Assembly: GCA_964609855.1 (NCBI GenBank)
Contig: CAZSTB010000001.1
Location: forward strand, 119,170 to 183,169
DNA from: an uncultured Bdellovibrionales bacterium
Lineage (GTDB): Bacteria > Patescibacteriota > Minisyncoccia > Moranbacterales > GWC2-37-73
Direction: 5' to 3'
Length of the DNA stretch: 64,000 bases
Notes under the pieces: model-generated
The model's input: only the letters and a program-made list of their open reading frames with translations
Databases searched by the model: none
Told to the model about the DNA's origin: nothing
Position numbers and translations under genes: made by a program
Part shown: positions 3,085 to 64,000 of the stretch, one piece after another
Position numbering within the stretch: position 1 is the stretch's first letter
Layout: every line of letters starts with the position of its first letter

Positions 3085-3498
3085 ATGGAAAAAATAATCA
3101 GGTCTGAGGATGAATGGCGAAAAATTCTTACACCCGAGCAGTTTCATGTTATGCGAGAAAAGGGCACGGAAATGGCATATTCATGCGCATGGAACGAGGA
3201 TAAACTTGAAAATGGAATTTTTCATTGTGCGGCTTGCGACTTGCCTCTGTTTTCAAGCGTCACGAAATTCGCATCAGGAACTGGCTGGCCTAGTTATTTT
3301 GCACCGCTTGAAAAAGAAAATATTGAAGAAAAAGAAGATTGGTCTTTGGGAGTTTTGCGCACTGAAGTCAGCTGCGCCCGTTGCGGCTCGCATTTGGGGC
3401 ATGTTTTTGAAGATGCCGCCGATACGCCGACAGGAAAAAGATATTGCATAAATTCCGTGGCGTTGAATTTTAAGTTTGAAAAGAATAATGAACAATGA
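3085..3498 (+). CDS. msrB: Peptide-methionine (R)-S-oxide reductase MsrB
   Basis: CAACDLPLF and CARCGSHLGHVF zinc CxxC pairs. GTGWPS catalytic region. Confidence 0.9.
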   Translation: MEKIIRSEDEWRKILTPEQFHVMREKGTEMAYSCAWNEDKLENGIFHCAACDLPLFSSVTKFASGTGWPSYFAPLEKENIEEKEDWSLGVLRTEVSCARCGSHLGHVFEDAADTPTGKRYCINSVALNFKFEKNNEQ

Positions 3499-20261: not shown

Positions 20262-20423
20262 CACTAATCATTTAAACAGCTAATCATTCAAGCATTTAAA
20301 CAAATAAACATGTAAACATGTAAACACTTAATCATTTAAACATGTAAACATTCAAACATTCAAACATTCAAACATTCAAACAATATGAATCGCTGTTTAA
20401 ATGTTTACATGTTTAAATGATCA
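20262..20423. repeat. Iteron-like repeat block in the marR divergent promoter region
   Basis: taatcatttaaaca occurs twice, aacatgtaaaca three times, ttcaaaca four times in tandem. A 22-24 bp inverted repeat: taatcatttaaacatgtaaacatt (20329-20352) against aatgtttacatgtttaaatgatca (20399-20422). Confidence 0.6.
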
Positions 20424-20433
20424 TATGAAATGG

Positions 20434-47263: not shown

Positions 47264-48142
47264 TTGATGATGTTGATTGATTATTACCAAAATATTCCCC
47301 GATATCTTGATCCGATCGCTTTTGCGGTCGGTTCTTTTTCTGTACGTTGGTACGCATTATCATACATGGTTGGTTTCCTTGTGGTTTATTTGGTTTTGCT
47401 AAGGAGAATTGAGAGAGGTGAGTTTGCGCATTTAATTAAAGTTTCAAATTTAAAATTTAAAATTAAAAATGAGATAGTCGGAAATGCGACTAAGGATATT
47501 TTAAGTGATTTCTTTTTGCTAGCTTTCTTTGCCGCATTAATTGGTGGGCGCTTAGGGTACGTGATTTTTTATAATTTTTCTTTTTACGCAAGCAATCCTT
47601 TGGCGATAATTTCACCATATGTGGGCGGAGAATATGTCGGAATTTACGGGATGAGTTACCATGGCGCCTTGTTGGCAATAATAATTTCAAGTTGGTTTTT
47701 TTTACGGGCCAAGAAAATCCCTTTTTTACCCTGGGCAGATTTTGTTTCATTGGCAATTCCGTTGGGATATTTCTTTGGAAGGATAGGAAATTTTTTAAAT
47801 GGAGAACTGTATGGAAAAATCACGACATCGCAATGGGGAATGTATTTCTCCACTAATGAATTAAGACACCCGTCCCAATTATATGAGGCAATCCTGGAAG
47901 GGTTATTGCTTTTTATCCTTTTGCGAGGTTGTGAAAAAAGGAAAATGCCAAGTGGGAGTATTTTCTCTCTATATTTTATTGCATATGGAACAATGAGAAT
48001 CGTAGTTGAATTTTTCAGGGAGCCTGATTCGCAAGTAGGTCTACTATTCAACATTTTAACTTTAGGACAATTATTATCGATACTTATGATAATTATGGGC
48101 ATCATTTCCATTTCCAGAATATTTGTTTTTAAAAAAGAATAA
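47264..48142 (+). CDS. lgt: Prolipoprotein diacylglyceryl transferase
   Basis: Lgt signature FFGRIGNFLNGELYGK. Multi-TM. Start abuts the upstream stop. Confidence 0.85.
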   Translation: MMMLIDYYQNIPRYLDPIAFAVGSFSVRWYALSYMVGFLVVYLVLLRRIERGEFAHLIKVSNLKFKIKNEIVGNATKDILSDFFLLAFFAALIGGRLGYVIFYNFSFYASNPLAIISPYVGGEYVGIYGMSYHGALLAIIISSWFFLRAKKIPFLPWADFVSLAIPLGYFFGRIGNFLNGELYGKITTSQWGMYFSTNELRHPSQLYEAILEGLLLFILLRGCEKRKMPSGSIFSLYFIAYGTMRIVVEFFREPDSQVGLLFNILTLGQLLSILMIIMGIISISRIFVFKKE

Positions 48143-49870: not shown

Positions 49871-50617
49871 ATGAGTGACCCTTTACCCTTGGGGAAAACG
49901 TACAAATTAAAGACCCTTAAATTAATTAAACGATTTATGGGCGCCCTAAGAAATCTCAATTTTCTATCTGTAGCGGTCGTAGTGATAATTTTTGGCTTAA
50001 TGCTGCGCATTAATGACGTACAGTCAGCTGCCAGGGCTAAGGCTGAGCAGGATCTGCCTGATAAGAAAATTGAAGAAATGGTCAATAAAAGTGCTTTATT
50101 TCAAGAAAGCTACCTATTTGACAGCTCTGCTGAAACTATTGAGCAACTAAATGAGAATAATAAGACCGTTTTAAAACGGGATATTGTAAAAGATGGCTCA
50201 AATGAGCTATTTTCCAAGAAATTACAGGAAATTGTGGGTGATGCGCCTATCTCTGAAATGGTGCCATTTATCTCAAAAAGAGACGAAAAAGTTGCGGCTT
50301 TTTTGGTGGGCATTGCTAAAAAGGAGAGTAGCTGGGGACAACACGCACCTAGTCAAAACGGTAGAAATTGTCATAACTATTGGGGATATAAAGGTTCAGG
50401 CAGTTTGGGAACAGGAATGGGATATGCTTGTTTTGCAAGTGCTGAGGAGGCTGTAGAAGTTGTAGGAAATAGAATTGAGGTTTTGATAAATAAGAAAAGA
50501 GACACTCCATCTCGCATGGTCGATACCTGGAAATGTGGTACAACCTGTAAAGGTGATCCGGGAGCTCCAAGTTGGGTAGCAACTGTTGCGCTATATTTTG
50601 AAAAAATTACAAGTTAG
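49871..50617 (+). CDS. Membrane-anchored GH73-like (ESxWG) putative peptidoglycan hydrolase (paralog family B)
   Basis: GIAKKESSWGQH...NYWGY...WKCGTTC. Tandem with 48634. Confidence 0.5.
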   Translation: MSDPLPLGKTYKLKTLKLIKRFMGALRNLNFLSVAVVVIIFGLMLRINDVQSAARAKAEQDLPDKKIEEMVNKSALFQESYLFDSSAETIEQLNENNKTVLKRDIVKDGSNELFSKKLQEIVGDAPISEMVPFISKRDEKVAAFLVGIAKKESSWGQHAPSQNGRNCHNYWGYKGSGSLGTGMGYACFASAEEAVEVVGNRIEVLINKKRDTPSRMVDTWKCGTTCKGDPGAPSWVATVALYFEKITS

Positions 50618-50650
50618 ATAGCGGCGGCGATTTTACGCCAGTTCTCGAAA

Positions 50651-50677
50651 AGTCCTGCAGATGCAGGGCTTTTTTTG
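50651..50677 (+). terminator. Rho-independent terminator
   Basis: agtcctgcagatgcagggcttttttt. Confidence 0.6.
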
Positions 50678-50699
50678 TTTGGCTACAATTTTCGGCTCT

Positions 50700-50905
50700 C
50701 TGTCATTTTGTGTGCAATTCCTGTGTCATTCCGAGCGAAGTGAGTCGACCAAGGGGAGATGAGCGCAGTTGAGGAATCTGAGTTAAATAATTTTTAAAAT
50801 CTGGCATTGAATGCGGATCCCTGCGCCATCGCTAAAGCTAAAGGCGGCACGCGGTCGGCTACATTTCTCCGCTATCGCGTCGTCATTTTGCTCGGGATGA
50901 CAAAT
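50700..50905. repeat. MITE-like element, copy 3 (~180 bp, terminal inverted repeats tgtcattccgagcg / gctcgggatgaca)
   Basis: TIRs at 50724-50737 and 50891-50903. Left end is shared with copy 2 (gtcattactcgctcgg) and, inverted, with the copy-1 end. Confidence 0.5.
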
Positions 50906-51190
50906 AACAAATAGTTATGGTGCAAATTGTTGTTCTTTTCTTTTGCTAAGGTGTGATTTGAACTTAGCCACCACTCTGGTTAATATAGAGTCCATTTTTC
51001 TTTAAAAGAAGATTTTAGTGTATAATGAAGTTAATATAATTCTTAATTTTAAATTTAAATTTTTTTTAAGTAATTTTTAATGATAAAGGGTAATTTGCAG
51101 AATTTAAAAAGCTCAGGAACTTGCACTTGAATATTTACATCTTATTTCATTTCAAATTTAAAAATTTAAAAATTTAAAATTTAATCAGTA

Positions 51191-52132
51191 ATGTCTTGGA
51201 TTTTTTTAGCTACAACTTCATACTTCTTTGGGGCATTAACGATTATCTTGGATAAGTATCTTTTACGTTCGGAAAAAATTTCCTCCCCCCCTATTTATGC
51301 CTTTTATGTTGGTCTAGCTGGGATGGGCGTGCTTGCATTTTCACCGCTAGCTTTTTTTTATCCTCAATTTGCATTGAAAATCATTTCTGGATATGAATTT
51401 TTGCTGGCGCTTGTCTCAGGTATCTTATTTTTGGCATCTATAACCGCGATGTATTTTGCGATTAAAAAATCTGAAGCCAGTAGGGTCACGCCTGTTGTTT
51501 ATTCAATTATCCCCCTGGTAACCCTCTCATTGTCTTGGATTATGGGTACGGAGATTTTTTCCGGGCAAAATATTTTCGGTATCGCACTTCTGATCGCAGG
51601 TGGCTTGCTTGTTTCTTTTGACTTGCCGCTTAAGCTAAAAAAGAAAAAATTCTTTGCAGGTTTTTATCTTTCTATTTTTTCTGGAATTCTAATGGGAATC
51701 TCGCTTCTTACGCTCAAGGAGATTTATCTACACCAAAGTTTTTTTAATGGTTTTGTCTGGTCACGTGGCGGAGCTTTGATTGGGTCCTTATTATTACTTC
51801 TGCACCCCTTGTGGCGCAAGGGGATAAGCAAGAGTTTTACTCACGCGCATAAAAATAAGCAAGAAAATCTTAAAACTGGAGGATTATTCGCTCTCAATAA
51901 ACTCTTGGGCGGTTCAAGCTCGGCCTTGATAAATCTTGCAATTGGTGCTGGCAGCGTCACACTGATTAGCTCCCTGATATCGATTCAATATGTTTTTGTT
52001 TTAATCATCGCAATTTTAGCAGGAAGACGGCTGCCACATATTTTTGAAGAAAGAATGCATTTTTGGGATTGGGCACAGAAAGTCATGGCCATTTTTATTA
52101 TAGCAGTCGGCATGTTCTACATTTTTAAATAA
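51191..52132 (+). CDS. EamA/DMT-family transporter (10 TM)
   Basis: Duplicated 5-TM EamA halves. Confidence 0.65.
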   Translation: MSWIFLATTSYFFGALTIILDKYLLRSEKISSPPIYAFYVGLAGMGVLAFSPLAFFYPQFALKIISGYEFLLALVSGILFLASITAMYFAIKKSEASRVTPVVYSIIPLVTLSLSWIMGTEIFSGQNIFGIALLIAGGLLVSFDLPLKLKKKKFFAGFYLSIFSGILMGISLLTLKEIYLHQSFFNGFVWSRGGALIGSLLLLLHPLWRKGISKSFTHAHKNKQENLKTGGLFALNKLLGGSSSALINLAIGAGSVTLISSLISIQYVFVLIIAILAGRRLPHIFEERMHFWDWAQKVMAIFIIAVGMFYIFK

Positions 52133-53203
52133 ATGTACTCTAAATCTAAATCTAAATCTAAAATAATTATGGATCCAAGTAAAAAGCTGGCTGATTTTGG
52201 AAAAAAAACCATGCAAATCCTACTATACATTTTCGGAAGCCTTTTAGTGCTGGTGATTATTTTTTTTATCTGGATTAATTTACCAGTAAGCGCTAGAAAA
52301 GAGAATGTCAAAGTCGGTGTTACCTTCTCGAATATTTATGCTGAGCAAATCGGACTTGATTGGCGTCAGGTATATCTTGCTATGCTTAGTGAGCTTAATA
52401 TTAAGGATATCAGACTTCCGGTTTATTGGGATCGAGTGGAGACGGGTCCTGGCCAGTATGATTTTACAGATTTGGATTGGCAACTGCAGCAAGCTCAAGC
52501 GCATGGAGCAAGGGTGATTCTAGTTATTGGCGAAAAAGTTCCAAGATGGCCGGAATGCTATGTTCCTAAATGGGTAGGAGTCGATGAAAAAGATCTTACT
52601 GGAAAATTATTGGCCTTTGAAGTTGAAGTGATAAACAGGTATAAGGATGGACATCCGGAGATAATTCATTGGCAGGTTGAAAACGAGCCATTTTTAGGAT
52701 TTGGAATCTGCGGTGAAGTTGATCCGGCAAGACTTGATGCTGAAATTGCTCAAACGCGCAGACTTGATTCATCTCGTTCTATAATAGTTACTGATAGTGG
52801 GGAACTTAGTCTTTGGATAAAGGCAGCTTCGCGAGCTGACATCTTTGGTACTACTATGTATCGCGAAGTTTACAGCGCGGAAATGGGTCACTGGCGTTAT
52901 CCTATTGGGCCAAATTTTTTCAAGGCCAAACAGTTGTTGATTAGAATTTTTGCAAAACAAAAAAATGCGATTGTAATTGAACTTCAAGGTGAGCCATGGG
53001 TAAAGGGATGGACTGTGGATGCACCTGTTGATGTTCAGCTTGCTTCAATGAACTCTTCCATTCTTATGGATAATGTGGAATTTGCCAAAAAAACAGGAAT
53101 GGACGAAATCTATGTTTGGGGCGTCGAGTGGTGGTATTGGATGAAAACAAATCAAAATAACGCGACACTTTGGGAGACTGCAAAGAGTTTTAATGAAAAA
53201 TAA
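52133..53203 (+). CDS. Membrane-anchored glycoside hydrolase, clan GH-A TIM-barrel (family not assignable by eye)
   Basis: VENEP catalytic acid/base motif. W..VE..PG.YDF..LD pattern common to GH-A (GH5/GH42-like). N-terminus contains an SKSKSKSK tandem (tctaaa repeated four times). Confidence 0.5.
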   Translation: MYSKSKSKSKIIMDPSKKLADFGKKTMQILLYIFGSLLVLVIIFFIWINLPVSARKENVKVGVTFSNIYAEQIGLDWRQVYLAMLSELNIKDIRLPVYWDRVETGPGQYDFTDLDWQLQQAQAHGARVILVIGEKVPRWPECYVPKWVGVDEKDLTGKLLAFEVEVINRYKDGHPEIIHWQVENEPFLGFGICGEVDPARLDAEIAQTRRLDSSRSIIVTDSGELSLWIKAASRADIFGTTMYREVYSAEMGHWRYPIGPNFFKAKQLLIRIFAKQKNAIVIELQGEPWVKGWTVDAPVDVQLASMNSSILMDNVEFAKKTGMDEIYVWGVEWWYWMKTNQNNATLWETAKSFNEK

Positions 53204-53245
53204 AATCCCTGTAAATTTCGACCAAATCGGCAAGACAAATACGAA

Positions 53246-54394
53246 ATGCAAGCATACATTCCTCATAGAAATAAAAAGCACTCGTGGCGGACAGCAATCT
53301 TTGTTGTTTTTATGGTGCTTATTTCTGCGGCGGTGACATATTCCGTGAAAGCATATTCTCAAAATCTTAAAACCGTGGCGACACTTGAAAAGTCATTAGT
53401 TGATGAATTCACTTCTGGTTTAGTTTTGAATTTTTCAATTCCCGTTAATCAAGCTAGCGTTGAAAAAAAATTGACTTTAATGCCCACACAAAAAATCATT
53501 ATGCGGTGGGAGAATAGCAGTCGGCTTATAATTTTGCCTGTAGAGAGTTGGAGAAATCAAGTAGAATACAGAATAAATCTGGAGGGGGAGAATATCTTTT
53601 TTCAAAGTTTTACGCAAGAATTAAATTTTAAGACACGCTCTTTTCCAATGATCCAGGAAACTTTCCCGCAAGACGGCCAAAGAGACGTTTCGGTAGATAT
53701 CGAGCAACCTATAAAAATAAAGTTCAATGCTTCTCTGGAAGATTTCAATGTGAATTTTAAGGTAAATCCTCGCACTTCATTGACTTGGCAATTAAATGAA
53801 GAAAAAACCGAGGTGAGCTTATTGGCTACTGATGACTTTTCTTGGGACACGCAATATTCAATAGCTGTAATGATCAAGCATAAAAAGCAGACAGATAATG
53901 AATATGTGAAAACGAAGCAAATAACTTTCCGCACGGCGAAAAAGCCTCAACTTGAAGCTTGGGAGTCTAATCCCTTGCTTCGAGTAGAGCAGGCAAAGAA
54001 GTTTGCAGTCGCAAGAATTAAAGCTGGAAAATATATTGATATTGATCTAGTTCATCAAGTGATGGTAATTTTTGAAGATGGAAAAGCGCTCGATTCCTTT
54101 ATGATTTCTTCGGGAAAAAAAGGGATGGAAACTCCACAAGGTGAATTTTCAATTCAAAACAAGCACCCTCGTGCATGGTCCAGGAAGTATGCTCTTTTTA
54201 TGCCTAATTGGATGGCGATAGTTCCCTCTGGGGAATATGGTATCCATGAACTTCCAGAGTGGCCAGGCGGGTATAAGGAGGGCGCAGATCATCTTGGCAA
54301 GCCAGTCTCGCATGGTTGTGTGCGACTTGGTGAGGATAGTGCTGAAAAAGTATATGCCTGGACTGAAACTGGAACACCGGTCGTGATTCACTAA
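53246..54394 (+). CDS. L,D-transpeptidase (YkuD domain) with N-terminal Ig-like domains
   Basis: C-terminal catalytic SHGCVRL motif. Membrane anchor. Confidence 0.8.
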   Translation: MQAYIPHRNKKHSWRTAIFVVFMVLISAAVTYSVKAYSQNLKTVATLEKSLVDEFTSGLVLNFSIPVNQASVEKKLTLMPTQKIIMRWENSSRLIILPVESWRNQVEYRINLEGENIFFQSFTQELNFKTRSFPMIQETFPQDGQRDVSVDIEQPIKIKFNASLEDFNVNFKVNPRTSLTWQLNEEKTEVSLLATDDFSWDTQYSIAVMIKHKKQTDNEYVKTKQITFRTAKKPQLEAWESNPLLRVEQAKKFAVARIKAGKYIDIDLVHQVMVIFEDGKALDSFMISSGKKGMETPQGEFSIQNKHPRAWSRKYALFMPNWMAIVPSGEYGIHELPEWPGGYKEGADHLGKPVSHGCVRLGEDSAEKVYAWTETGTPVVIH

Positions 54395-54525
54395 TGGATA
54401 TATTTTTGCTATAATGAAAGAAGAATGTAGACTTTTTCTATGGGCGTCATTGTTTTTGCTGAAAAGCAAATTTGGGAGATAGGAATTTTCATTGCATTTT
54501 TCTTCACTAAAAATAAAATATAAAA

Positions 54526-56169
54526 ATGAAAAATTTTAAAAAGAATAGTTTTGTTTTTTTTGGCATTATTTTTTTTACAGCTGCAAGCGTATTTATTGCT
54601 ACGAATCTTCTTGCGCAAACCCAAGCTGGAATTGATTTTGATACTACAGCTTCTGCTTCGGTTTGCGGTAGTGCTAATGGCGGTGCGTTTAGTGAGCCTC
54701 CAAAGGCTGAAACATTATGTTTGAACGGAACAGCTAAGCCTGATATTCCAGGCTTTGCTAATAATCAATGGCTTTGGTATTGTTCAAATGCGATTGCAAC
54801 GGTTAAATGCGGAGCAAGCTTTTTAATCCCAGCTTCCAAGCAAATAATCAATGGTGCCTGCGGCTTAAATAGTAGTGATGCTGTGAGGATAGCGCCAAGT
54901 GGCGCAGCTCTTTGTGCTGCCGGAACCAGTGGCGAGGTAAAAACTACTTCAGAAGGTTGGAGCTGGTTTTGTTTGGGCGCGAACGGTGGAGATAATGCAC
55001 AGTGTCAGATAAAGAAAAGTGTAACGATTACGCAGGTTGTTACAAACGGAGAGTGCGGAGCTTCAAATGGTAAAACTTTTTCAACGGCTCCTGCGAGTGG
55101 ACTTTGTTTGAGAGGAGCTGCTACGAATGTTTTAAATATAGGTGATAAATGGAATTGGAAATGCGAGGGAATAAATGGAGGTGCGGTTGCAAATTGTGCC
55201 GCTGGTAAGACAGCTTCCATAACATCATCTACGACAAATCCAAGTACTGCAACTTCCAAGACGGAAACCACGCCTACATATCAATCAGGCTCCTTTACGC
55301 AAAGTAGTCCAGTTGTGGAAGAAAAAAATATCTCCGAAGAGCAAGTTTCCGCGTCTACATCCAATGTTGTCAAAGAAGATGTTGGAGAAGTTATTTGTGG
55401 CGCAGCAAACGGCTGGTCATTTGAAAATGTTCCATCCGACAACACTTTTTGCATGAATGGATTCATGACTGATTTTAAAACGCTTAGTAATGGCTGGGCA
55501 TGGAAATGTACAGTTTCTGGTAAAGAAGTTCAATGTGGGGCAGGAAAAACGGCACAGTTGCAGAATTTTTCAAGGGAGATTTCAGTTCAGCAGCAGCAAG
55601 TCAGTCAAAAAATAATATTAGAAAGTTTGGAAAAAGTTCAGCCTGCGGTACCTGAAGTGCGCGATGGAAAATCTTTTGAAAGTCCTAAGCAAGCAGGGGA
55701 GATTGATTGGGAACTTAAAGTGGAGCATGTCGGGATGGTGGAGCAGGCGGGCGCTAAGAAAGTTGCGCTTGTTGGAAAGGCGCAGCCGGAAACTTTCATC
55801 ACTATTTTTGTGTATAGCGAAGATCCTGTAGTGATCACTGTTAAAGCAGATAAGGATGGAAACTGGCATTACGCTCTAGATAAAGAGTTAGCGGATGGGG
55901 AACATGAGGTTTATGTTGCGGTTACCGATGAGGAGGGAAAAGTAATGAAGAAAAGTGAACCGCTTGCATTTGTTAAGACGGCACAAGCAGCTACTGCCAT
56001 TGCTAGCGAGAGAATTGGTAATATCGAAAATAATAAATCACCATTGCAACGAGCTGGACAAAGTTTTTTAGCGGTAGGAGTTGTCATTATAATGGTGTTT
56101 TTCGCACTAGCTCTGACATTGATTGGCGTTTTAACTCATAAGCATAACGGAGATGAAGAAATTTCTTAA
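54526..56169 (+). CDS. Surface protein with four tandem ~55 aa 4-Cys modules, Ser/Thr-rich linker, Ig-like domain and C-terminal TM anchor
   Basis: Signal peptide. Repeats CG(S/A)xNGxxF...P...LC..G...............W.W.C.G.NGG....C occur four times. Final TM VGVVIIMVFFALALTLIGVL. Confidence 0.6.
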   Translation: MKNFKKNSFVFFGIIFFTAASVFIATNLLAQTQAGIDFDTTASASVCGSANGGAFSEPPKAETLCLNGTAKPDIPGFANNQWLWYCSNAIATVKCGASFLIPASKQIINGACGLNSSDAVRIAPSGAALCAAGTSGEVKTTSEGWSWFCLGANGGDNAQCQIKKSVTITQVVTNGECGASNGKTFSTAPASGLCLRGAATNVLNIGDKWNWKCEGINGGAVANCAAGKTASITSSTTNPSTATSKTETTPTYQSGSFTQSSPVVEEKNISEEQVSASTSNVVKEDVGEVICGAANGWSFENVPSDNTFCMNGFMTDFKTLSNGWAWKCTVSGKEVQCGAGKTAQLQNFSREISVQQQQVSQKIILESLEKVQPAVPEVRDGKSFESPKQAGEIDWELKVEHVGMVEQAGAKKVALVGKAQPETFITIFVYSEDPVVITVKADKDGNWHYALDKELADGEHEVYVAVTDEEGKVMKKSEPLAFVKTAQAATAIASERIGNIENNKSPLQRAGQSFLAVGVVIIMVFFALALTLIGVLTHKHNGDEEIS

Positions 56170-57529
56170 AAGAGGCATTGAATTTGTTAGCAAGAATCCC
56201 ACCATTATATCTTCACTGATACTTATTTTTGTTGTTGTTTCCGCAATTTTTTTGAATTCTTTTTTTACATTAAACAAATTTCAGGAAAATTTAGATACAA
56301 CTCTTAGGACAAAAGCAGTTTTAGCTGAGAATGTTTTAGGAATTGCGGCCGATAAATATTTTTCAGATATCAAAAATAATGCGCCTGAGCTGGAAACAAA
56401 AATAAATGCCATTCGTCAACAAAGTTCTGAAGTTTCAGAAATAACGATTTATGTTTTTAATGATGAGAAAAAAGATTTTGTGCCGCTTATCTCTACTGAA
56501 CATAATGAAAACAATCCAACTTCTTCTGAGACGGATTTGGTTGCGCAAAATGCGCGCAAATTTGCAGGATCAGTGAATGACGCTTTTGCATATGTGAGTA
56601 ATTTCGAAGGAGAGCGTTTTTGGAATGTAGTTAAGGCGCTGCGGTTGCCTGACGGGAATGTTGCAGGAATTTTATCAATGAAATTTTCTTTAGCTAAATC
56701 GGATGAATTAGTAAGAGAAACGATCCTGCGGGTTTATGCACTTTCGGTTGGCGCTGTAATTGTGGTACTACTTTTGATGTTGAATCATATCAGACTTTTT
56801 ACTTTTGAAATTAAAGCAAAAAAACTGGAAGAGATTGATAAAATGAAAGATGATTTCATTTCTATGGCTTCCCATGAGCTTAAAAGTCCGTTAACGGCAA
56901 TCAGCGGATATACGGATTTACTTGTGGATACAATTTCCTGTGAATCCGAAAAAGCAGTTGCACTGCAGCAACGGAAATATTTAGATAACATAAATATTTC
57001 CGTAGATAGGCTTAAGACATTGGTGGAAGATTTATTGGTGGTTTCCAGAATCGAACAAAATAGGTTGCCTGTTGAATGTGTGAACATGAACGCTACAAAT
57101 ATTGCTGGACAAATTATTGATGAAATGAAAGTTACCTCAGATCAGAAAGGGCTATTGCTTAAAAAATCTCTATCCGAGGTTTCGAATGTCTTGGCTGACC
57201 CTGAACGAGTTAAACAGATCATGGTAAACCTACTTAGTAATGCGATAAAATACACTGAAAAAGGTACAGTGGAAATTATTTCAAAGGAGGATGCGGAAGC
57301 GGTTTATATAACCGTCGCTGACACAGGCATGGGTATTTCGGCAGAAAATATGCAACAGCTTTTTTCCAAGTTCTATCGCGTGAAAAACTCCCAGACAATG
57401 CAAATTTCCGGAACTGGACTTGGTCTTTGGATTGCGCGTGAAATTGCCCAAAAGATGGGCGGAAATCTTACTGTGGAGAGTATTGAAGGCGTGGGGTCGC
57501 ATTTCACCCTTAAATTGAAAAAAAATTAA
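56153..57529 (+). CDS. Sensor histidine kinase (2 TM with extracytoplasmic sensor; HisKA + HATPase_c), no cognate response regulator in window
   Basis: H-box SHELKSPLTAISGY. N box LLSNAIKYT, G1 DTGMGI, G2 GTGLGLWIA. 17 bp overlap with the upstream gene. Confidence 0.85.
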   Translation: MKKFLKRGIEFVSKNPTIISSLILIFVVVSAIFLNSFFTLNKFQENLDTTLRTKAVLAENVLGIAADKYFSDIKNNAPELETKINAIRQQSSEVSEITIYVFNDEKKDFVPLISTEHNENNPTSSETDLVAQNARKFAGSVNDAFAYVSNFEGERFWNVVKALRLPDGNVAGILSMKFSLAKSDELVRETILRVYALSVGAVIVVLLLMLNHIRLFTFEIKAKKLEEIDKMKDDFISMASHELKSPLTAISGYTDLLVDTISCESEKAVALQQRKYLDNINISVDRLKTLVEDLLVVSRIEQNRLPVECVNMNATNIAGQIIDEMKVTSDQKGLLLKKSLSEVSNVLADPERVKQIMVNLLSNAIKYTEKGTVEIISKEDAEAVYITVADTGMGISAENMQQLFSKFYRVKNSQTMQISGTGLGLWIAREIAQKMGGNLTVESIEGVGSHFTLKLKKN

Positions 57530-57633
57530 ACGCGATACGAAACTACGAATTCATTCGAATATGACGAATGGAATGCAAGAATCTAAATTTGTAGATTCGC
57601 AATAATTTGTAGATTCGAATCGGTTAGATATTT

Positions 57634-58344
57634 ATGAATAAACAACAAAAAATAGCAATCTTTGATATTGATGGAACAATTTTTCGCAAAAATCTACAGT
57701 TTGAACTGATTAATGAAATGTCATGGATGGATATTTTTCCGCGCAAAGTCAGAGACCAAATCGTCACCTTATACACGAACTGGATTGAGCATAAGGGTAC
57801 ATATGAGCAATATAGGGCAGGGCTGGTGGATTTATATGAGAAATATATTTGCGGTTGTAGGCTTACTGATGTGCAGCGAGCCAGTAAGGCTGTTGTTTCC
57901 TTTCATCAAGATAGGACTTATGTTTTTGCAGAAAAGATTATTTCCAAGCTTAGAAAAGAGGGCTATCATTTGATTGCGATTTCTGGTTCGCCGATTGAAA
58001 TTGTACGCGAATATGACGTTAAGCATCTTAAATTCGATGCTGTCTTTGGCAGCGTATACGACATCGATGCCAAAGGAAAGTATACCGGCAAGACTGATTA
58101 CGAACCAGTGCAGCATAAGGGCGCTCTTGTAAAGCAATATGTTTACGAGCATGATTTAACGCTTGAAGACTCTTACGGCATGGGTGATACTGAATCTGAT
58201 GCTAGTTTTTTGGAGCTTGTGGCTAATCCGATTGCTTTCAATCCTAACGAGAATCTTAGAGCAATTGCAGAAGCCAAGGGATGGAGAATAGTTGTGGAAA
58301 AGAAAGATGTCATTTATGATATGACTAGCTGCGTATTAATATGA
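57634..58344 (+). CDS. HAD-superfamily hydrolase (HAD-IB/phosphoserine-phosphatase-like)
   Basis: IFDIDGTIF motif I, ISGS motif II, GDTESD motif IV. Confidence 0.75.
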   Translation: MNKQQKIAIFDIDGTIFRKNLQFELINEMSWMDIFPRKVRDQIVTLYTNWIEHKGTYEQYRAGLVDLYEKYICGCRLTDVQRASKAVVSFHQDRTYVFAEKIISKLRKEGYHLIAISGSPIEIVREYDVKHLKFDAVFGSVYDIDAKGKYTGKTDYEPVQHKGALVKQYVYEHDLTLEDSYGMGDTESDASFLELVANPIAFNPNENLRAIAEAKGWRIVVEKKDVIYDMTSCVLI

Positions 58345-58778
58345 AAATAATGCAATAATATGACACTCAACGAATTCCTTGAAAAGAAAATTATTAAAAG
58401 ATTCCTTTGGCTTTGGTTGCCAATCCATGCATTTCGGCGTCTCACTAAGGAGATTAAGAATAAATGAGTCAGGTTTAAGTTGCAATAAGTTTATTGGCAT
58501 GCGTGAGAATCTTACGCGAAAATATTGGTAGTTATCATTGTTTCTTACCGTTGATGATTTTATCCTTAGATTGGATCACTAAATTTATTGCACTGGAGGC
58601 TTTAAAAAACTTGGCAGAACTTCTAATATTAGCTAGTTGCTAAGATTATCCTGAGAAAAAAAGAATATACAACAATCCTATTACTTGTGGGTCATATTGC
58701 TTATTGAGAGTCATGGAATTTTAAAAAAATTCTGAAATATGCTATAATCTAAAAAGTTAGTTTGGCTTAAGATTATAA

Positions 58779-60035
58779 GTGAAAAATATGTTAGGCAAAA
58801 TAAAAAATTTCTTCAAAGACCATTATCACATCCTTTTCAAATCTGCAGCAGTCAATCACTTGCGTATTCAGGAAATCTTGAAAAGCCCTGATGGGACATA
58901 TAATCTGACTGTAAAGTTCGGATCATATTCCGAGCTTAAAAAATATCAGCGAAAAATGAGAAGGCTCACGATCAGTCTTTCTTCAGCAGTGGCGATGGTT
59001 GTCGTGGCTCTTGTTGTTGCGCCCTATGTCATGAATCCAAACAGATCAAGCGCTTCAAATTTTTTGTGGACGCAGAATTCCTGGACCACACAATCTAACG
59101 CTGCCAAAACTTATCCTTCTAATGGAGGGGTTGAATATGTTTCAAAAACTACCAACATTGATTTGACTGGCGGAAAAATAGCCATGGCAACTCCAACCGT
59201 GGCGAGTACGGGTGATTCGAGTTATTCAACTGCACCGGACGGATTTTATCTGGATGGCAGCGCCCGCGTTTTGAAAAAAGTTCAAGGTGCGACATGTGGA
59301 GGTGTTGGAGAATGTAAATCAGGACTTTGCACAAATGGAACTTGTTGCAATGATGCTTGCTGCGGAGTTTCTTCCATTACGGATAATCGCGATACTAATA
59401 ATCCGACTTATGAAACTGTCGCACTTGGAACACAATGTTGGCTGAAAAGAAATTTGAATGTAGGAACGATGATAGGTTCGAAATTAGCTGACAATGTGAC
59501 CTATCAAAATCAAGCAAACAACTCCATTGTTGAAAAATATTGCTTTAATTATGTCAAACAAGGGGATGCAACTCAAATAGCTACGGGAAACAGTAATTGC
59601 GCATCGTACGGAGGACTTTATCAATGGCCCGAGGCAAACGCTTTGTCTGCCAGTTGCATTTCGACAAGTTGCGCTGTGCCAAGTCCGAATCAGGGGATCT
59701 GTCCCGCTGGTTGGCATGTTCCGACGGATGCGGAAATTAAAACTTTGGAAATGCATTTTGGTATGTCTCAGACAGATGCTGATGGAACTGGTTGGCGAGG
59801 AACGGTGTCTGCCTCATTTAGGACTGGGCTTAATATTTTATCTGCAGCTGGGTATTTCAGCCAGTCAAGCATGGCTTTTTCTAATAATGGTGGTACGAAT
59901 ACAGGGTTAGCAACCGCTACTGAAAATAGCACAACTACTGCATGGTATCGCGAGCTTAATAGCTCTCTTGCCGGTATACAACGTGGTATTCCATCAAAAA
60001 TATCAGCGTATCCATTAAGGTGTGTCAAGAATTAG
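58779..60035 (+). CDS. Secreted protein with Cys-rich segment and C-terminal FISUMP-type domain (Fibrobacter succinogenes major paralogous domain, TIGR02145-like)
   Basis: CPAGWHVPTDAEIKTLE and terminal YPLRCVKN fit the FISUMP signature. CGGVGECKSGLCTNGTCCNDACCG cluster. N-terminal TM/signal. Confidence 0.55.
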   Translation: MKNMLGKIKNFFKDHYHILFKSAAVNHLRIQEILKSPDGTYNLTVKFGSYSELKKYQRKMRRLTISLSSAVAMVVVALVVAPYVMNPNRSSASNFLWTQNSWTTQSNAAKTYPSNGGVEYVSKTTNIDLTGGKIAMATPTVASTGDSSYSTAPDGFYLDGSARVLKKVQGATCGGVGECKSGLCTNGTCCNDACCGVSSITDNRDTNNPTYETVALGTQCWLKRNLNVGTMIGSKLADNVTYQNQANNSIVEKYCFNYVKQGDATQIATGNSNCASYGGLYQWPEANALSASCISTSCAVPSPNQGICPAGWHVPTDAEIKTLEMHFGMSQTDADGTGWRGTVSASFRTGLNILSAAGYFSQSSMAFSNNGGTNTGLATATENSTTTAWYRELNSSLAGIQRGIPSKISAYPLRCVKN

Positions 60036-60054
60036 AGTAATAAGAATAAAAAAT

Positions 60055-60294
60055 ATGTCTAAAAAAATAAAAAACATTTTATCTCTTTCTGTCCTGGTCT
60101 TTGTCGTCGGTTTTGTTGGCGCATTTTTGGGAAAAAGTTTTGAAAAAACCAAACTTGGTCAAAAACTGGAAAAAACCTTTGGCATCAAAAGTGAAAACAA
60201 ATCCGTTGAGACTGCTCAGGCCACAAGTTGCATCGAGCAAGCACAAGAAGAAGACAACAGCGTGATGTTTGTGGGGTGCAATGGGATATTTTAG
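60055..60294 (+). CDS. Small membrane-anchored hypothetical protein
   Basis: MSKKIKNILSLSVLVFVVGFVGAFLG...; internal Met start chosen. Confidence 0.3.
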   Translation: MSKKIKNILSLSVLVFVVGFVGAFLGKSFEKTKLGQKLEKTFGIKSENKSVETAQATSCIEQAQEEDNSVMFVGCNGIF

Positions 60295-60295
60295 G

Positions 60296-60356
60296 GGAAA
60301 TTTCTAATTTTCAATTTTCAATTTCTAAACAATTTCCAATTCATAAATTTTCAATT
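60296..60356. repeat. Left arm of ~55 bp imperfect inverted repeat (TTTTCAATT-motif rich) flanking the four-helix-bundle gene
   Basis: tctaattttcaattttcaatttctaaacaatttccaattcataaattttcaattgc; reverse complement of 60699-60764. Confidence 0.55.
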
Positions 60357-60358
60357 GC

Positions 60359-60715
60359 ATGAATTATGATTTAGAAAATAGAACAAGAAAATTCAGTAAA
60401 GAAATTATTGGATTCTTAAAGCGTTTGAAGAAAGATGATATCAATAAAAGTATGGTTTCTCAGCTAGTAAGGTCTGCAACTAGTGTGGGAGCTAACTATT
60501 GCGAGGCAAATGGTGCAAGCTCCAAGAAAGACTTCAAAAACAAAATATTTATCTGCAGAAAAGAAATTCAGGAAACTAAATACTGGCTTGAACTCATAGC
60601 TGAATCGAATGATGAAGAAAAGGAAAATCTGAAAATTCTTTGGAAAGAAGCTCATGAGCTGACATTAATTTTTAATAAGATATCCTCAACCCTAAATAGT
60701 GAATTGAAAAATTGA
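60359..60715 (+). CDS. Four-helix-bundle protein (TIGR02436 / 23S rRNA intervening-sequence protein family; bAvd-like)
   Basis: QLVRSATSVGANYCEANGASSKKDFKNKIFICRKEIQETKYWLELI matches the family core (QLxRSxxSIgaNIAEG...F..k..ia.kE..ET.yWL.l). Confidence 0.7.
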   Translation: MNYDLENRTRKFSKEIIGFLKRLKKDDINKSMVSQLVRSATSVGANYCEANGASSKKDFKNKIFICRKEIQETKYWLELIAESNDEEKENLKILWKEAHELTLIFNKISSTLNSELKN

Positions 60716-60764
60716 AAATTGATCTATTGTTTGAAAATTGAAAATTAGAAATTGAAAATTAACA
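60699..60764. repeat. Right arm of the inverted repeat; overlaps the stop codon of the four-helix-bundle gene
   Basis: gaattgaaaaattgaaaattgatctattgtttgaaaattgaaaattagaaattgaaaattaac. Confidence 0.55.
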
Positions 60765-60812
60765 AACAGGTTCTCCCTGTTTTTTTATATAAAGTTCCCT
60801 TATAATGAGTCT

Positions 60813-61544
60813 ATGCTCAAGATAAACAATCTCCACGTGAAATACAGAGGCGCAAATACTCCCTCCATCCAGGATGTTTCTTTTGAGGTGGAGAAGGGGG
60901 ATCGAGTTGCAATTTTGGGGCCGTCGGGATGCGGGAAGAGCACGACGTTGAATGCTATCGCGGGACTTTTGGATGAAAAAAATGTTGAAATTAAGGGAGA
61001 AATAAAATGGAATGATATGGAAAAAACTGAGCTCGGCTCCGGAGAGCCCCCTGTTATCCGTATGGTTTTTCAAGAAGCCACACTGCTTCCCTGGAGGACG
61101 GTTGAGAAAAATATCGCTTTCGGTTTGGAAATCAAGAAACTGCCAAAAAATGAAATCAAAAGCAGGGTAGCAGAAATGCTCAGAGTCGTAGGGCTTTTGG
61201 AAAATGCTAAGAGTTATCCGCATGAGCTTTCGGTCGGCATGCAGCAACGGGTGAATTTTGCTCGCGCCCTCGTTTGTGAACCGGAGCTGCTTTTGATGGA
61301 TGAACCATTTTCCGCGTTGGATGTGGAAACCAAGAAAAAACTGCAAGAAGAATTTTCAAGAATCATCAATGAAAAGAAAATGACAACGATTTTCGTGACT
61401 CACAATATCCAAGAAGCGCTTTCCATGTCGGACAATGTCATAACTTTTTCCGCCGCTCCAGCTGTAGTTGAAAACATTTTTGCCAGTACAGCTATTTTTG
61501 GGGGTGATGAGTGTGTTATAAATTTTGAACAATATGAAGGATAA
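60813..61544 (+). CDS. ABC transporter ATP-binding protein (NitT/TauT family)
   Basis: GPSGCGKST, LSVGMQQRVNFARAL, LLMDEPFSALD. Confidence 0.85.
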   Translation: MLKINNLHVKYRGANTPSIQDVSFEVEKGDRVAILGPSGCGKSTTLNAIAGLLDEKNVEIKGEIKWNDMEKTELGSGEPPVIRMVFQEATLLPWRTVEKNIAFGLEIKKLPKNEIKSRVAEMLRVVGLLENAKSYPHELSVGMQQRVNFARALVCEPELLLMDEPFSALDVETKKKLQEEFSRIINEKKMTTIFVTHNIQEALSMSDNVITFSAAPAVVENIFASTAIFGGDECVINFEQYEG

Positions 61545-62298
61545 ATTAATTGAATTTTTTAGTAGGTATGTGCACAGCATACTATCCCTAGCTTTTTTTA
61601 TGTTGGCGTGGCAGGCGCTCATACCATTTTTTGAAAAAGAGCTTTTTTTTAGTACTCCACTGAATATCTTGCATGAAGGGTTTGAACTTATTGTGTCTGG
61701 TTATTTAGCCCCACATCTGATGTTTAGCTTGGGGATGCTGCTGGTTGGTTTTTTGGCGGCACTTATTCTAGGTATAATCTCAGGTATTATTCTTGGTTTG
61801 CACACATGGCTACGTAGCTTTTTAAATCCATATGTGTATCTCCTGAATACTACTCCACTTATCGCAATCATGCCGCTGCTTATCATATGGTTTGGGATAG
61901 GAATTTCTTCCAAAATTTTTATAGTATTTCTTATGGCTTTTGTGCCTATCTTGATCAGTACTATTGAGGGTGTTAAGAATGTTGACGCGTCCAGGATTTC
62001 CATGGCTCGTTCTTTTGGGGCTGGAACGTTTGAGATAATAAAATCTGTTATGTTTTTAGATGCGCTGCCATTTATTATTTCGGGAGCTAGAATTGCGATT
62101 GGTCGGTCATTGATCGGGCTGGTTTTGTCGGAAGCATTTGGTAGTGGAAAGGGTATAGGATATCTCGTTTCTTTTTATGGAATAACGTTTCAGACAAGTA
62201 GGCTTATGTTTATGGTGTTTTTATTTTTTTTCTTAGCATTTGTTGCAAATATGACAGTTTTTGCTTTGGAGAAAAAGATGTTAAGATATAGAAATTAA
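61525..62298 (+). CDS. ABC transporter permease (NitT/TauT family, BPD_transp_1)
   Basis: 6 TM with EAA-like loop (ARSFGAGTFEIIKSVMFLDALP). Confidence 0.8.
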   Translation: MNNMKDKLIEFFSRYVHSILSLAFFMLAWQALIPFFEKELFFSTPLNILHEGFELIVSGYLAPHLMFSLGMLLVGFLAALILGIISGIILGLHTWLRSFLNPYVYLLNTTPLIAIMPLLIIWFGIGISSKIFIVFLMAFVPILISTIEGVKNVDASRISMARSFGAGTFEIIKSVMFLDALPFIISGARIAIGRSLIGLVLSEAFGSGKGIGYLVSFYGITFQTSRLMFMVFLFFFLAFVANMTVFALEKKMLRYRN

Positions 62299-62316
62299 TT
62301 TCAATCAAACTTTCTC

Positions 62317-63303
62317 ATGAAAAAGATAATCTTAATTGTAGTTTTCTTTGTTACTATAAGCTCCGGAATATTTTTTTTGATTTATAATCAAAAGGAAAAG
62401 AAGAATAGTGTGAAAGTTTCAGATAATAAACTTACGATGGTGATTCCCAGGAGTGTGCAAGAGGCAAATTTTTTGTTTGATTTTGCTAATGATAATGGAT
62501 ATTTTGAAAAAGAGGCTCTTCAAGTTGAGCGAGTATATGCAGAACAAAATACTTTTCAAATGTTTATTGCCGGGGGAGCGGACGTGTATTCCGCAGGGGC
62601 AAACAGCGCTGTCATTGCTTATATGAATGGTCAAGAACCTCGAATAATTGCAAGACTAGTGGGGCTTTATAGCACGTATGCCTTAGGAAGGTTTCCTAAG
62701 GACGAAATATCTTCAGTGAAACGCGTAGGCGTTGCAAGTCAGACAAGCGAACTTGTTCCTCAGGCCAAGGATATGCTTGCTCAGATGGGAGCCGATTTGA
62801 ATTTGATTGAGATGATTTCTTTTCCAGATGATAGCCCACGCTTTGCAGCTTTCGAAAGAGGCGATTTGGATTTTGTGGTTCTTAATTCGCCGAGTCTTAT
62901 GGAAAAGATTGATATTAATAAATATCACTTTTTTAAATATGAAGATTTTGAGCAATCTCTTCCTTATGATAAATTCCTGATAACCACTGACGCAGCTATA
63001 CAGGAAAAGGAATCGCAATTGCAAAAACTTGTCTTTGCTTACCGCAAAGCTCTCCTCTATATAGATGGGCATCCCGAGGAAGTTCGCAGATATCTGATTG
63101 AAAAGCATAGCTTTTCAGAAGATAAGGCTAAAAAGTATTACGGTTCGTTTGAATTGGCACACCAAGAGAAAAATGTCATACCGGAAATAAACAAGTTGTC
63201 TCCCTTGATGGAGCAGGTTTCTGCGGACATTAAATTTAAGGAGAAAAGGGCATTGAGTGGCATTATCTATGAAGAATTTGCCAAGAAAGAAATGGCTTTG
63301 TGA
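62317..63303 (+). CDS. ABC substrate-binding protein (NMT1/THI5-like, SsuA/TauA/ThiY family), membrane-anchored
   Basis: N-terminal TM anchor then a periplasmic-binding fold typical of nitrate/sulfonate/HMP binders. Completes the three-gene importer. Confidence 0.7.
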   Translation: MKKIILIVVFFVTISSGIFFLIYNQKEKKNSVKVSDNKLTMVIPRSVQEANFLFDFANDNGYFEKEALQVERVYAEQNTFQMFIAGGADVYSAGANSAVIAYMNGQEPRIIARLVGLYSTYALGRFPKDEISSVKRVGVASQTSELVPQAKDMLAQMGADLNLIEMISFPDDSPRFAAFERGDLDFVVLNSPSLMEKIDINKYHFFKYEDFEQSLPYDKFLITTDAAIQEKESQLQKLVFAYRKALLYIDGHPEEVRRYLIEKHSFSEDKAKKYYGSFELAHQEKNVIPEINKLSPLMEQVSADIKFKEKRALSGIIYEEFAKKEMAL

Positions 63304-63348
63304 AAATAATTTGTTCAGCTTGTGATATAAGATAGCCAACTTTTTTGG

Positions 63349-64000
63349 TTATTTTATATGTGAAATGATGTTCTTGCTTTTAGCTCCCAATGGCCAAGTG
63401 TCTACGAAAGTTATTTCAAGCGGTAGGAAGATATTTTTCGAAATAAAATCTGACAAGGTCATTTTTCCGGAGAGTTGAAGGGAGTTGCTGATCTTTTCTT
63501 TAAGAATTTGTAATAGGAGCTCATCTTTTTTTGAGTTTTCGAATTCTTTTTTCAATTTAAGGTGTAGCTCTAATTGTGGGTAAGGTTTTCCATTGATGGA
63601 TTTTTCTATGATATGTAATTGGAACCGAGGCTCTGCGACATCAGTTATTTTTGCTATTGCTTTCGCAACCAATTCTGAATATATGATCGCGCCATGTGTT
63701 TTTAATGCATCAAATCCCATTCTCCCTTCGATTGAGAAAAAGATATCATTTCCGCATGGACATAGTTTTCGATTTAGAGAGCCGGCATCACTCAGCTTGT
63801 AGCGGATTAAGGGAAAAGGTTTTTTCTTAAGGTCGGTGTGAATCATTTCCCCAACTTCTTTGAATGGGGTGAGATTACCTTCTTCATCAACTATTTCAAT
63901 AAGCTCCACTTGTTTGTCTATATGAAAAATACCAGGCCCTTCATTCTTGGTTAAATTTTGACATCTGAAATGGCGTGATCCTCCGCCTATTTCAGAATTT
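63349..64000 (-). CDS. Phenylacetate-CoA ligase (PaaK)/coenzyme F390 synthetase-family adenylate-forming enzyme, C-terminal part only (5' end beyond window)
   Basis: Minus-strand frame is open to nt 64000. C-terminal domain pattern PLIRYKLSDAGSL...CPCG...IEGRMGFDALKTHGAIIY fits the PaaK C-terminal domain. Confidence 0.6.
   Translation of the reverse strand, partial: NSEIGGGSRHFRCQNLTKNEGPGIFHIDKQVELIEIVDEEGNLTPFKEVGEMIHTDLKKKPFPLIRYKLSDAGSLNRKLCPCGNDIFFSIEGRMGFDALKTHGAIIYSELVAKAIAKITDVAEPRFQLHIIEKSINGKPYPQLELHLKLKKEFENSKKDELLLQILKEKISNSLQLSGKMTLSDFISKNIFLPLEITFVDTWPLGAKSKNIISHIK

Follow-up and report, generated by a model that had tools for sequence, protein, structure and literature searches.

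Why should a gene for a small four-helix-bundle protein lie enclosed between two inverted arrays of 7-nt repeats, in a stretch of DNA where we find no ribosomal RNA (rRNA)? The locus in question is on contig CAZSTB010000001.1 of an uncultured Bdellovibrionales bacterium (Patescibacteriota in the GTDB lineage), in a stretch of 64,000 nt referred to here as the window. All coordinates given without a prefix are those of the window, read on its forward strand. An original prediction, made from the letters alone, had described a gene related to the Avd and 23S intervening sequence (IVS) proteins as a cassette between inverted repeats (IRs), and had proposed a mobile cassette, an invertible cassette or a pair of protein-binding arrays. 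Our preferred explanation, in which we place about as much confidence as doubt, is a palindromic cassette of the IVS type that resides outside rRNA, and that would be transcribed with its host operon and cut in its stem by RNase III. The argument starts from the following features:

60298..60356, + strand: left arm, with heptads AATTTCT AATTTTC AATTTTC AATTTCT and then AAACAAT at 60327-60333
60299..60321, + strand: perfect 23-nt core of the left arm, 100% complementary to 60731-60753
60359..60715, + strand: four-helix-bundle protein gene (PF05635/TIGR02436; S23p/Avd-like), 118 amino acids (aa), in the hairpin loop, with profile, structure and selection data
60701..60761, + strand: right arm, with ATTGTTT at 60726-60732 and then GAAAATT GAAAATT AGAAATT GAAAATT A
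60731..60753, + strand: perfect 23-nt core of the right arm, pairing with 60299-60321

The repeat unit of the arms is a heptad, AATTTTC or AATTTCT on the left and GAAAATT or AGAAATT on the right, and not the 9-mer that had been suggested. The arms had been placed at the right location, but their ends, given before as 60296-60356 and 60699-60764, are now set at 60298-60356 and 60701-60761; the outer boundary on the left is the point where homology to four related loci (L001, L017, L027, L028) starts. The inner part of the left arm is less regular and ends 2 nt 5' of the ATG. As predicted, the right arm overlaps the end of the gene: it starts within the last four codons and the stop (..GAA TTG AAA AAT TGA) of the 118-aa open reading frame (ORF), which ends at 60715. 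Measured from the ACAAT/ATTGT anchors of the two arms, the perfect 23-nt pair is one heptad out of register. A local IR alignment of the arms scored 52, whereas 2000 shuffled sequences averaged 17.8 (sd 2.8) and never exceeded 32. Folded with a GAAA loop between them, the arms gave -35.9 kcal/mol; dinucleotide shuffles of them lie at -19.05 +/- 2.96 (z -5.7; 0/200). The enclosure of the gene between inverted repeats is thus real. In the fold of the whole unit (about 464 bp, 60298-60761), the arms are paired and the ORF forms the loop. Elsewhere in the 64-kb window, the arm motif does not occur beyond chance.

The first structures of the PF05635/TIGR02436 family were solved in 2006, and we know of no function for it outside diversity-generating retroelements (DGRs). 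It is a large family, with 7916 clusters at 50% identity (E<=1e-3). The 118-aa protein is a member, as had been proposed: it scores 65.5 bits with the PF05635 profile (E 5.7e-18; curated cut-off 33.8) and 81.5 bits with TIGR02436 (4.7e-23; curated cut-off 24), and a profile built from 35 of its relatives matches PDB entry 2RLD at 6.8e-16. An AlphaFold (AF2) monomer model with a pLDDT of 93.9 has helices at residues 5-22, 30-51, 56-83 and 85-114. It superposes on 2RLD and 2GSC with TM scores of 0.80 and 0.81, and on bAvd (4DWL) with 0.66-0.72, in line with the relationship to bAvd stated in the original prediction. The 2RLD and 2GSC crystals contain five chains each, A-E. The protein is basic (isoelectric point, pI, 9.0). 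The family motif has been given as GxxRxxxSxxxNxxE (PMC3936711), and the RxxxSxxxNxxE part is found in QLVRSATSVGANYCEA as R38, S42, N46 and E49; the last three are invariant among the 35 relatives, and R38 nearly so.

Is this arrangement peculiar to one contig? Copies of the inverted repeats were found at 80 genome loci and at least 120 metagenome sites, in several phyla, and the relatives carry the gene together with its repeats. The refuting case named in the original prediction, with arms confined to one place and relatives that have the gene alone, thus does not hold. Thousands of close relatives of the 118-aa protein (70-94% identical) are present in assemblies of Patescibacteria/Candidate Phyla Radiation (CPR) bacteria. 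We sampled the 80 genome loci and 24 contigs of four near relatives, which after removal of duplicates gave 81 distinct cassettes. Nearly all of them have a T-rich heptad array 5' of the ATG and its reverse complement 3' of the stop codon, at median positions of -52..-2 and +7..+53, respectively, and about 47 pairs align. Scored as IRs, the arms average 47.7 within a locus, 36.0 when taken from different loci and 19.5 once shuffled. Arm autocorrelation at lags of 7, 14 and 21 nt is 0.54, 0.46 and 0.40 against a control of 0.29 (a second figure for lag 7 is 0.52), and lag 7 is the best lag in 68/81 left arms and 59/81 right arms. The type of heptad varies by lineage, in both arms jointly (TTTTCAA/TTGAAAA, TTTTAAA/TTTAAAA, TTTTGAA/TTCAAAA, TTTCCAG/CTGGAAA), and it is specific to the cassette even where one contig carries two (L027, L034, L068, L070, L091). 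Twenty-six of the 39 strict period-7 arrays in CPR loci lie at four-helix-bundle genes. Each arm contains 2-4 near-perfect units with no peak at 5, and a correspondence between five heptads in an arm and the five subunits of a pentamer was rejected for this reason.

These cassettes occupy a variety of places. The gene for a 92%-identical protein in Moranbacteria GW2011_GWE1_36_7 lies between pilin genes of a type IV secretion system (T4SS), and other cassettes follow genes for giant surface proteins or separate pilC from a type IV pilin gene; this last site is kept across genera in five loci. An Rfam scan of 20 cassette loci detected no rRNA, and no homologue of the 118-aa protein was found on viral contigs. 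We also noted two contigs, from the same strain or one 98% identical to it, whose first bases belong to an arm (L016 1-53, L105 1-30), so the arrays apparently break short-read assemblies. Many homologues of the 118-aa protein are on contigs of about 1 kb.

Outside the CPR, we inspected 12 plasmid-borne homologues. In nine of the 12, inverted arms score above every shuffle, and most of these arms are built of heptads. The units are GTCGGAG in Nostoc punctiforme, AATCCCC/AATCGTA in Planktothrix, TAATTCG in N. flagelliforme and Dolichospermum, CCAGTGA (13 times) in Euhalothece, TTTTAGA in Gloeocapsa and GAAGGAT/ATGAATT in Chlorohelix (Chloroflexota). Nostoc UHCC 0870 has a perfect, non-periodic 40-nt IR; two homologues from Bacteroidota and one from Pseudanabaena have direct or complex repeats, not inverted arms. 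Neighbouring genes are co-oriented in 10/12 cases, and eight of these ten genes lie inside recognisable operons or defence clusters: between an RND adaptor and its permease, between drmD and pglX, between DUF1156 and Swt1-HEPN genes (in two phyla), between a helicase and a methylase gene, before cas1, and before xisH-xisI. The loci in question include DISARM/BREX-like, DUF1156-HEPN, helicase-methylase, CRISPR and RND efflux operons from cyanobacteria, Chloroflexota and Bacteroidota (L110, L111, L114, L115, L117, L118). The presence of 23S_rRNA_IVP genes inside cas loci has been interpreted as a functional link (PMC3936711, PMC10910872). The published CRISPR association of the family may instead reflect insertion into operons, and we suspect that heptad arrays could be mistaken for CRISPR-like repeats in annotation. 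The heptad-armed design appears to be general for the four-helix-bundle family and, outside rRNA, apparently undescribed: we found no description of such cassettes in the literature searched, whose coverage left out most subscription journals.

One could object that this is an ordinary gene with AT-rich flanks of low complexity, or a decayed DGR accessory gene, given that the genome is AT-rich and the protein is related to Avd. This is contradicted by the IR score, which lies far over that of the shuffles, and by the recurrence of the same architecture in the 81 CPR cassettes and in the nine homologues from other phyla, whose heptads are entirely different and in some cases G+C-rich. As the original prediction had stated, the locus is not a DGR either. 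A Pfam scan of the ORFs of at least 180 aa from 47 to 64 kb found no reverse transcriptase (RT) gene, and there is no template/variable repeat (TR/VR) pair, that is, no direct repeat of at least 40 nt, within 50000-64000. We regard both variants of this explanation as highly improbable.

The cassette is a discrete unit bounded by its repeats, as had been proposed, and it recurs in unrelated operons with its gene nearly always in the sense of the neighbours. A five-way alignment shows homology that begins at the outer heptad (AATTT.., preceded by A) and stops after ..GAAAATT (followed by A), with unrelated flanks on either side. The clearest case is a pair of cassettes on two contigs of one metagenome-assembled genome (MAG; L074 and L075), which are 95% identical over 476 nt (-40 to +37), a span bounded by the outer ends of the two arms, and again have unrelated flanks.

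Sharp ends at the outer heptads, unrelated contexts and a near-identical pair in one MAG are what one would expect of a mobile element that moves as DNA. Here, the arms would be terminal inverted repeats (TIRs), the protein would belong to the mobility machinery, and the RNA stem would be a by-product. The original prediction of a mobile cassette has indirect support of this kind, to which the site itself contributes. The slot of the window cassette can be compared with one syntenic relative (L120/L121), in which the genes run GPI, ManC, helix-turn-helix (HTH), Fib_succ_major, 79-aa gene, slot, ABC ATPase, permease and NMT1. There, the slot (L120 4241-4815, also in L121) holds a gene for a 150-aa protein of the GxxExxY/PDDEXK_3 family (TIGR04256, 1e-29), which has inverted arms of its own with GCTGAT/ATCAGC units (IR score 34, shuffle maximum 23). 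Flank homology between L120 and the window ends at the stop codon of the 79-aa gene and restarts about 6 nt before the ABC start. The slot was therefore filled independently or its content replaced, and a second gene family, GxxExxY, seems to travel in armed cassettes. The idea that an IVS ORF serves mobility is not new, as it was raised for Leptospira, as cited in a study on the Coxiella IVS (PMC4990558); this IVS has been called selfish, and its ORF has been put forward as a mobility factor (PMC4990558).

Other marks of mobility are missing. Neither the L074/L075 pair nor the five aligned cassettes have a target-site duplication or a recognisable target motif, the flanks sharing a single A per side. 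A Pfam scan of the neighbouring ORFs revealed no recombinase or transposase gene next to the cassette, and the protein itself is a plain four-helix bundle of the 2RLD/2GSC/bAvd type, without the fold of a nuclease, a recombinase or a transposase. Within a genome, paralogues are mostly old (45-70% identical, with different heptads), and there are no bursts of near-identical copies. Empty sites, for which the original prediction had suggested a search in related genomes, did not turn up in clean form among homologues of the downstream ABC ATPase and the upstream 79-aa gene. Among the former, the 98%-identical strain L105 must have the cassette, since its contig starts in the right arm, and relatives at 64-69% identity have different upstream genes, which makes them uninformative on this point; among the latter, L120 carries the GxxExxY cassette, and a 54% relative lacks synteny. 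The absence of copies on viral contigs and the retention of sites across genera, such as that between pilC and the pilin gene, also argue against a mobile element.

The orientation of the cassettes argues against inversion. An invertible segment, switching phase by recombination between its inverted repeats, had been suggested by the geometry of a gene between such repeats, and only this geometry favours it. Among 76 cassettes with both neighbours called, 66 are '++', seven '+-', three '-+' and none '--', and the upstream gene is co-stranded with the cassette gene in 77/80. For four loci followed across about 26 independent assemblies, the orientation was constant and the inverted one was never found. 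The lack of an adjacent recombinase gene and the fact that the arms are only about 80% complementary point the same way, and we give this possibility hardly any credence. The cassette gene is separated from its neighbours by median distances of 61.5 and 66 nt, an intergenic space that the arms fill.

Do the arms occur without the gene? We scanned metagenomes with the left-arm motif and obtained at least 84 sites; the figures that follow refer to the matches listed. Eight of the 84 sites have the gene and 11 are too close to a contig end. Of the remaining 65, at least 29 are solo hairpins without an ORF, with a median length of 117 nt. Many of them end 5-13 nt before a start codon and some adjoin tRNA genes; likewise, several of the non-gene period-7 arrays in CPR loci consist of two arms that pair around a short loop, with no ORF between them. 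Such ORF-less hairpins, built with the arms of the cassettes, are thus scattered through CPR genomes, and one lies inside an rRNA gene: a complete CPR 16S rRNA gene (L151 2021-3763) spans 1743 nt instead of the 1533 nt of the model and contains an arm-type hairpin of about 145 nt (motif at 3193-3215). Insertions in CPR 16S and 23S genes have been reported to encode 23S_rRNA_IVP proteins in some cases, and the short ones without an ORF, at the classic IVS positions, have been taken for RNase III IVSs (PMC11270868). These ORF-less copies of the arms, together with the shared architecture of S23p-bearing rRNA IVSs with heptamers, are the two links that go beyond the original prediction. CPR genomes are otherwise considered streamlined, and the solo hairpins are a repeat family that has not been described in them.

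Two solo hairpins are orthologous (L046 5854-5968, L077 2078-2195). Their outer arms are identical at 37/38 and 35/36 positions and keep a C.A mismatch every 7 nt, while the protein encoded by the gene next to them is 60% identical, with 41% identity at third positions (saturated). The inner stems differ in sequence, yet each is still self-complementary. Among the matches listed, solo hairpins are oriented '++' to their neighbours in 10 cases and '--' in 14. We considered this split as a mechanistic clue and dropped it: the hairpin is quasi-symmetric, with the T-rich arm first on either strand, so that only the ORF defines an orientation. Arm sites without a close partner included three long-range pairs, 420-570 nt apart. 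In the best-scoring ones (L133 ~660-1180, L169 ~18-600), the heptads run in frame through pheT-like and membrane-protein genes, and new cargo genes between distant arms were rejected on this ground. In two further loci (L125, L143), the arm motif lies directly 5' of NYN/LabA-like genes, as judged by eye from the translation, and no right arm was found 3' of them.

For a DNA-level mobile element, the solo hairpins would be comparable to MITEs (miniature transposable elements with inverted repeats), and the proportion of listed arm sites with and without the gene is what one expects of autonomous and non-autonomous copies. The arm sequence, kept beyond the needs of pairing, fits this as well. 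The hairpin conserved at one site in L046 and L077 does not. Taken together, we consider a mobile DNA element possible but doubtful.

Selection maintains both the arms and the ORF. Between the window and L001, identity at codon positions 1, 2 and 3 of the ORF is 91, 96 and 60%, and the arms are identical at 48/60 and 40/48 positions, while the outer flanks are at chance level (35-50%). The orthologous loci L066 and L072 agree at 80% of third positions, and in their arms at 52/52 and 59/60. Because arm identity exceeds that of third positions and the flanks are at chance, these comparisons indicate purifying selection on arms and protein alike, with the arms evolving more slowly than the synonymous sites of their own ORF. 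Arm complementarity in register is 0.67 within a locus and 0.594 across loci (permutation p 0.002); like the joint change of heptad type in both arms and the inner stems of L046 and L077, this is covariation of a structural type and favours the IVS-type cassette. Complementarity drops to 0.53-0.57 when the arms are shifted by +/-7 nt.

Such conservation would also be expected if the arms were operator-like arrays, in DNA or RNA, that bind the cassette's own putatively pentameric protein for autoregulation or insulation, with neither mobility nor RNase III involved. The omega repressor of pSM19035, a small protein on contiguous heptad arrays, is a precedent. The strict 7-nt period, the cassette-specific heptads and the conservation of non-complementary positions suit this explanation. 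So does the order of heptad variants, which is not mirrored between the two arms, as well as the one-unit offset of the perfect match in the window. The protein is basic and has the fold of the nucleic-acid-binding Avd. The protein-binding arrays of the original prediction have some support, from arm conservation including the conserved mismatches. On the other hand, ORF-less hairpins keep the arms with no protein gene adjacent, one of them within a 16S rRNA gene, an operator has no need of an inverted layout or of compensation in the inner stem, and no member of the family is known to bind a specific sequence. As a complete account of the locus, we think this unlikely.

In our preferred explanation, a palindromic IVS-type cassette outside rRNA, transcription of the upstream 79-aa gene would read through into the cassette. 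The 5' arm of the RNA is U-rich and the 3' arm A-rich, and the two would pair over about 50 bp into a stem with the ORF shut off in its loop. By analogy with the S23p-carrying 23S IVS of Coxiella, this stem may be a substrate of RNase III, and the cut would detach the RNA of the ORF from the host message and release it. The element would be harmless wherever a cut without ligation is tolerated, as at the tips of rRNA helices and in intergenic spaces. Since the strict 7-nt motif is conserved beyond the need of pairing, it is probably also read by a protein. The obvious candidate is the cassette's own, putatively pentameric product, whose reading of the heptads could serve autoregulation or have a role in spread.

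Several observations weigh against this explanation. We infer RNase III cleavage only from the homology of design, and the element is not an IVS in the strict sense, because the window has no rRNA gene. The main weakness is that an RNA signature is missing. The shared periodic motif accounts for much of the arm complementarity, and the arm stem consists nearly entirely of A-U pairs. An asymmetry in duplex energy between strands is absent in the cassette loci (42 versus 39, p 0.8), as is an excess of G.U-type mismatches (134 G.U versus 134 A.C); both tests have little power, because TC/CT swaps in the heptads yield the two types equally. Finally, the arm sequence is conserved more tightly than pairing needs, including the C.A mismatch every 7 nt. 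Conserved mismatches of this kind point to sequence-specific recognition, by the cassette's own protein or another factor, rather than to a plain stem. Among the competing explanations, the data contradict an invertible switch, a remnant of a DGR and low complexity by chance.

If the heptads are recognised by the protein, one may go further. We tentatively propose, with more doubt than for the cassette itself, that a very large class of heptad-armed palindromic elements extends across phyla and has the S23p/Avd-like proteins as its cognate factor. The gene cassettes would be the autonomous members of the class, and the ORF-less hairpins, the ORF-less rRNA IVSs, the short tandemly repeated repetitive (STRR) arrays of cyanobacteria and the Xanthomonas arrays the non-autonomous ones; the Avd of DGRs would be a domesticated form, and the association with CRISPR and defence genes hitch-hiking. 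The putatively pentameric protein would read the heptads of its own arms, in RNA or DNA, for the control of processing or for spread. Should it be true that the family generally is the cargo of heptad-armed cassettes, three puzzles would become one testable problem: the nature and spread of rRNA intervening sequences, the hundreds of intergenic heptamer arrays in cyanobacteria and Xanthomonas, and the recurrence of the gene inside CRISPR, DISARM/BREX, efflux-pump and pilus operons.

The surroundings of the cassette in the window are those of protein-coding genes. Directly upstream is the gene for the 79-aa membrane protein, whose stop codon (60292-60294) is 3 nt from the left arm. No promoter-like site above chance was found before the cassette. 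On the other side, the right arm is abutted by a further feature:

60764..60789, + strand: terminator-like hairpin with a T-run, in the host flank and outside the conserved unit

This hairpin was not seen in the other aligned cassettes nor in L120. With the 79-aa gene ending at 60294 and the hairpin starting at 60764, the cassette sits between the two. The neighbours of the 118-aa gene encode a Fib_succ_major protein, the 79-aa membrane protein, an ABC transporter, NMT1, HAD and histidine kinase proteins and others. Rfam and tRNA scans of the window detected neither rRNA nor tRNA, and searches with PADLOC and PHROGs gave nothing meaningful.

Three other repeats in the window deserve mention. 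An ORF-less palindromic repeat at 20265-20428 has 8-nt units (CATTCAAA four times and CATGTAAA, opposed by TGTTTAAATGTTTACATGTTTAAATGAT); its best pair is 28 nt long and 96% complementary, and it lies in a divergent intergenic region between an ORF ending at 19812 (-) and one starting at 20597 (+). Repeats of the TTTTAAA type form a weak inverted pair at 51045-51181, whose end lies 10 nt 5' of the ATG (51191) of an EamA-family gene. It resembles the solo hairpins, and its RNA fold is at the level of shuffles (z 0.32). A period-7 array, TTTCAAATTTAAAATTTAAAATTAAAAAT, at 47442-47470 lies within the lgt ORF (47264-48142; LGT 6e-63) and may be an arm remnant read in frame, or chance.

How does the cassette compare with known systems? 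It resembles an integron cassette in having an ORF without a promoter that relies on outside transcription, an imperfect inverted repeat and a cargo that varies per slot. Unlike integron cassettes, it has arms on both sides of the ORF instead of a single 3' attC, is associated with no integrase or attI, and is single, not arrayed. With bAvd (4DWL, 8UB8), it shares a small, basic protein with the four-helix-bundle fold. bAvd is pentameric and binds nucleic acid and RT. However, the sequence identity is about 9%, RT, TR/VR pair and target gene are all lacking, and the nearest solved relatives of the 118-aa protein are 2RLD and 2GSC, which are not from DGRs.

The solo hairpins and the gene cassette recall pairs of transposons and MITEs, or repetitive extragenic palindromic (REP) elements: palindromes of about 100-130 nt are dispersed between genes, and a longer form with the same ends carries a gene. 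There is, however, no transposase, RAYT or target-site duplication, and the ends are tandem heptads, not unique TIRs. The palindromic elements of Rickettsia are a comparable class of dispersed palindromes, and as with palindromic elements, some copies here lie in RNA genes (L151) or in frame within ORFs (L133, L169, 47442-47470). Heptameric tandem repeats are also known from cyanobacteria as STRR sequences. Like these and the arrays of Xanthomonas, the units that flank cyanobacterial four-helix-bundle genes (AATCCCC, TAATTCG, GTCGGAG, CCAGTGA, TTTTAGA) are 7 nt long and in tandem. The arrays described in Xanthomonas (GGGAATC) and Anabaena/Nostoc (GGGGA(C/T)T) are intergenic, of unknown function and often in convergent pairs, 70 of them in X. 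campestris (PMC4692102); they were not tied there to four-helix-bundle genes, a link that rests here on the 12 plasmid-borne genes.

The closest counterpart is the 23S IVS of Coxiella and Leptospira. In Coxiella, the IVS carries an S23p ORF, RNase III cuts its inverted-repeat stem, and the number of its tandem GACAGAT heptamers differs among strains (PMC4990558). In both cases, a protein of the same family is encoded in the loop with inverted repeats tightly around the ORF. As in Coxiella, the arms contain tandem heptamers, here with an offset of one unit, short ORF-less forms exist, and the distribution is sporadic. The differences lie in the heptad (AATTTTC instead of GACAGAT), in RNase III excision, which has been shown there and is proposed here, and in the site, which for the window cassette is not an rRNA but the space that separates a gene for a small membrane protein from an ABC-transporter operon. 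Moreover, the Coxiella ORF is decaying, whereas the ORF in the window is under strong purifying selection. Judged from these sequence comparisons, what is new is an IVS-like element outside rRNA whose functional four-helix-bundle gene is maintained by selection.

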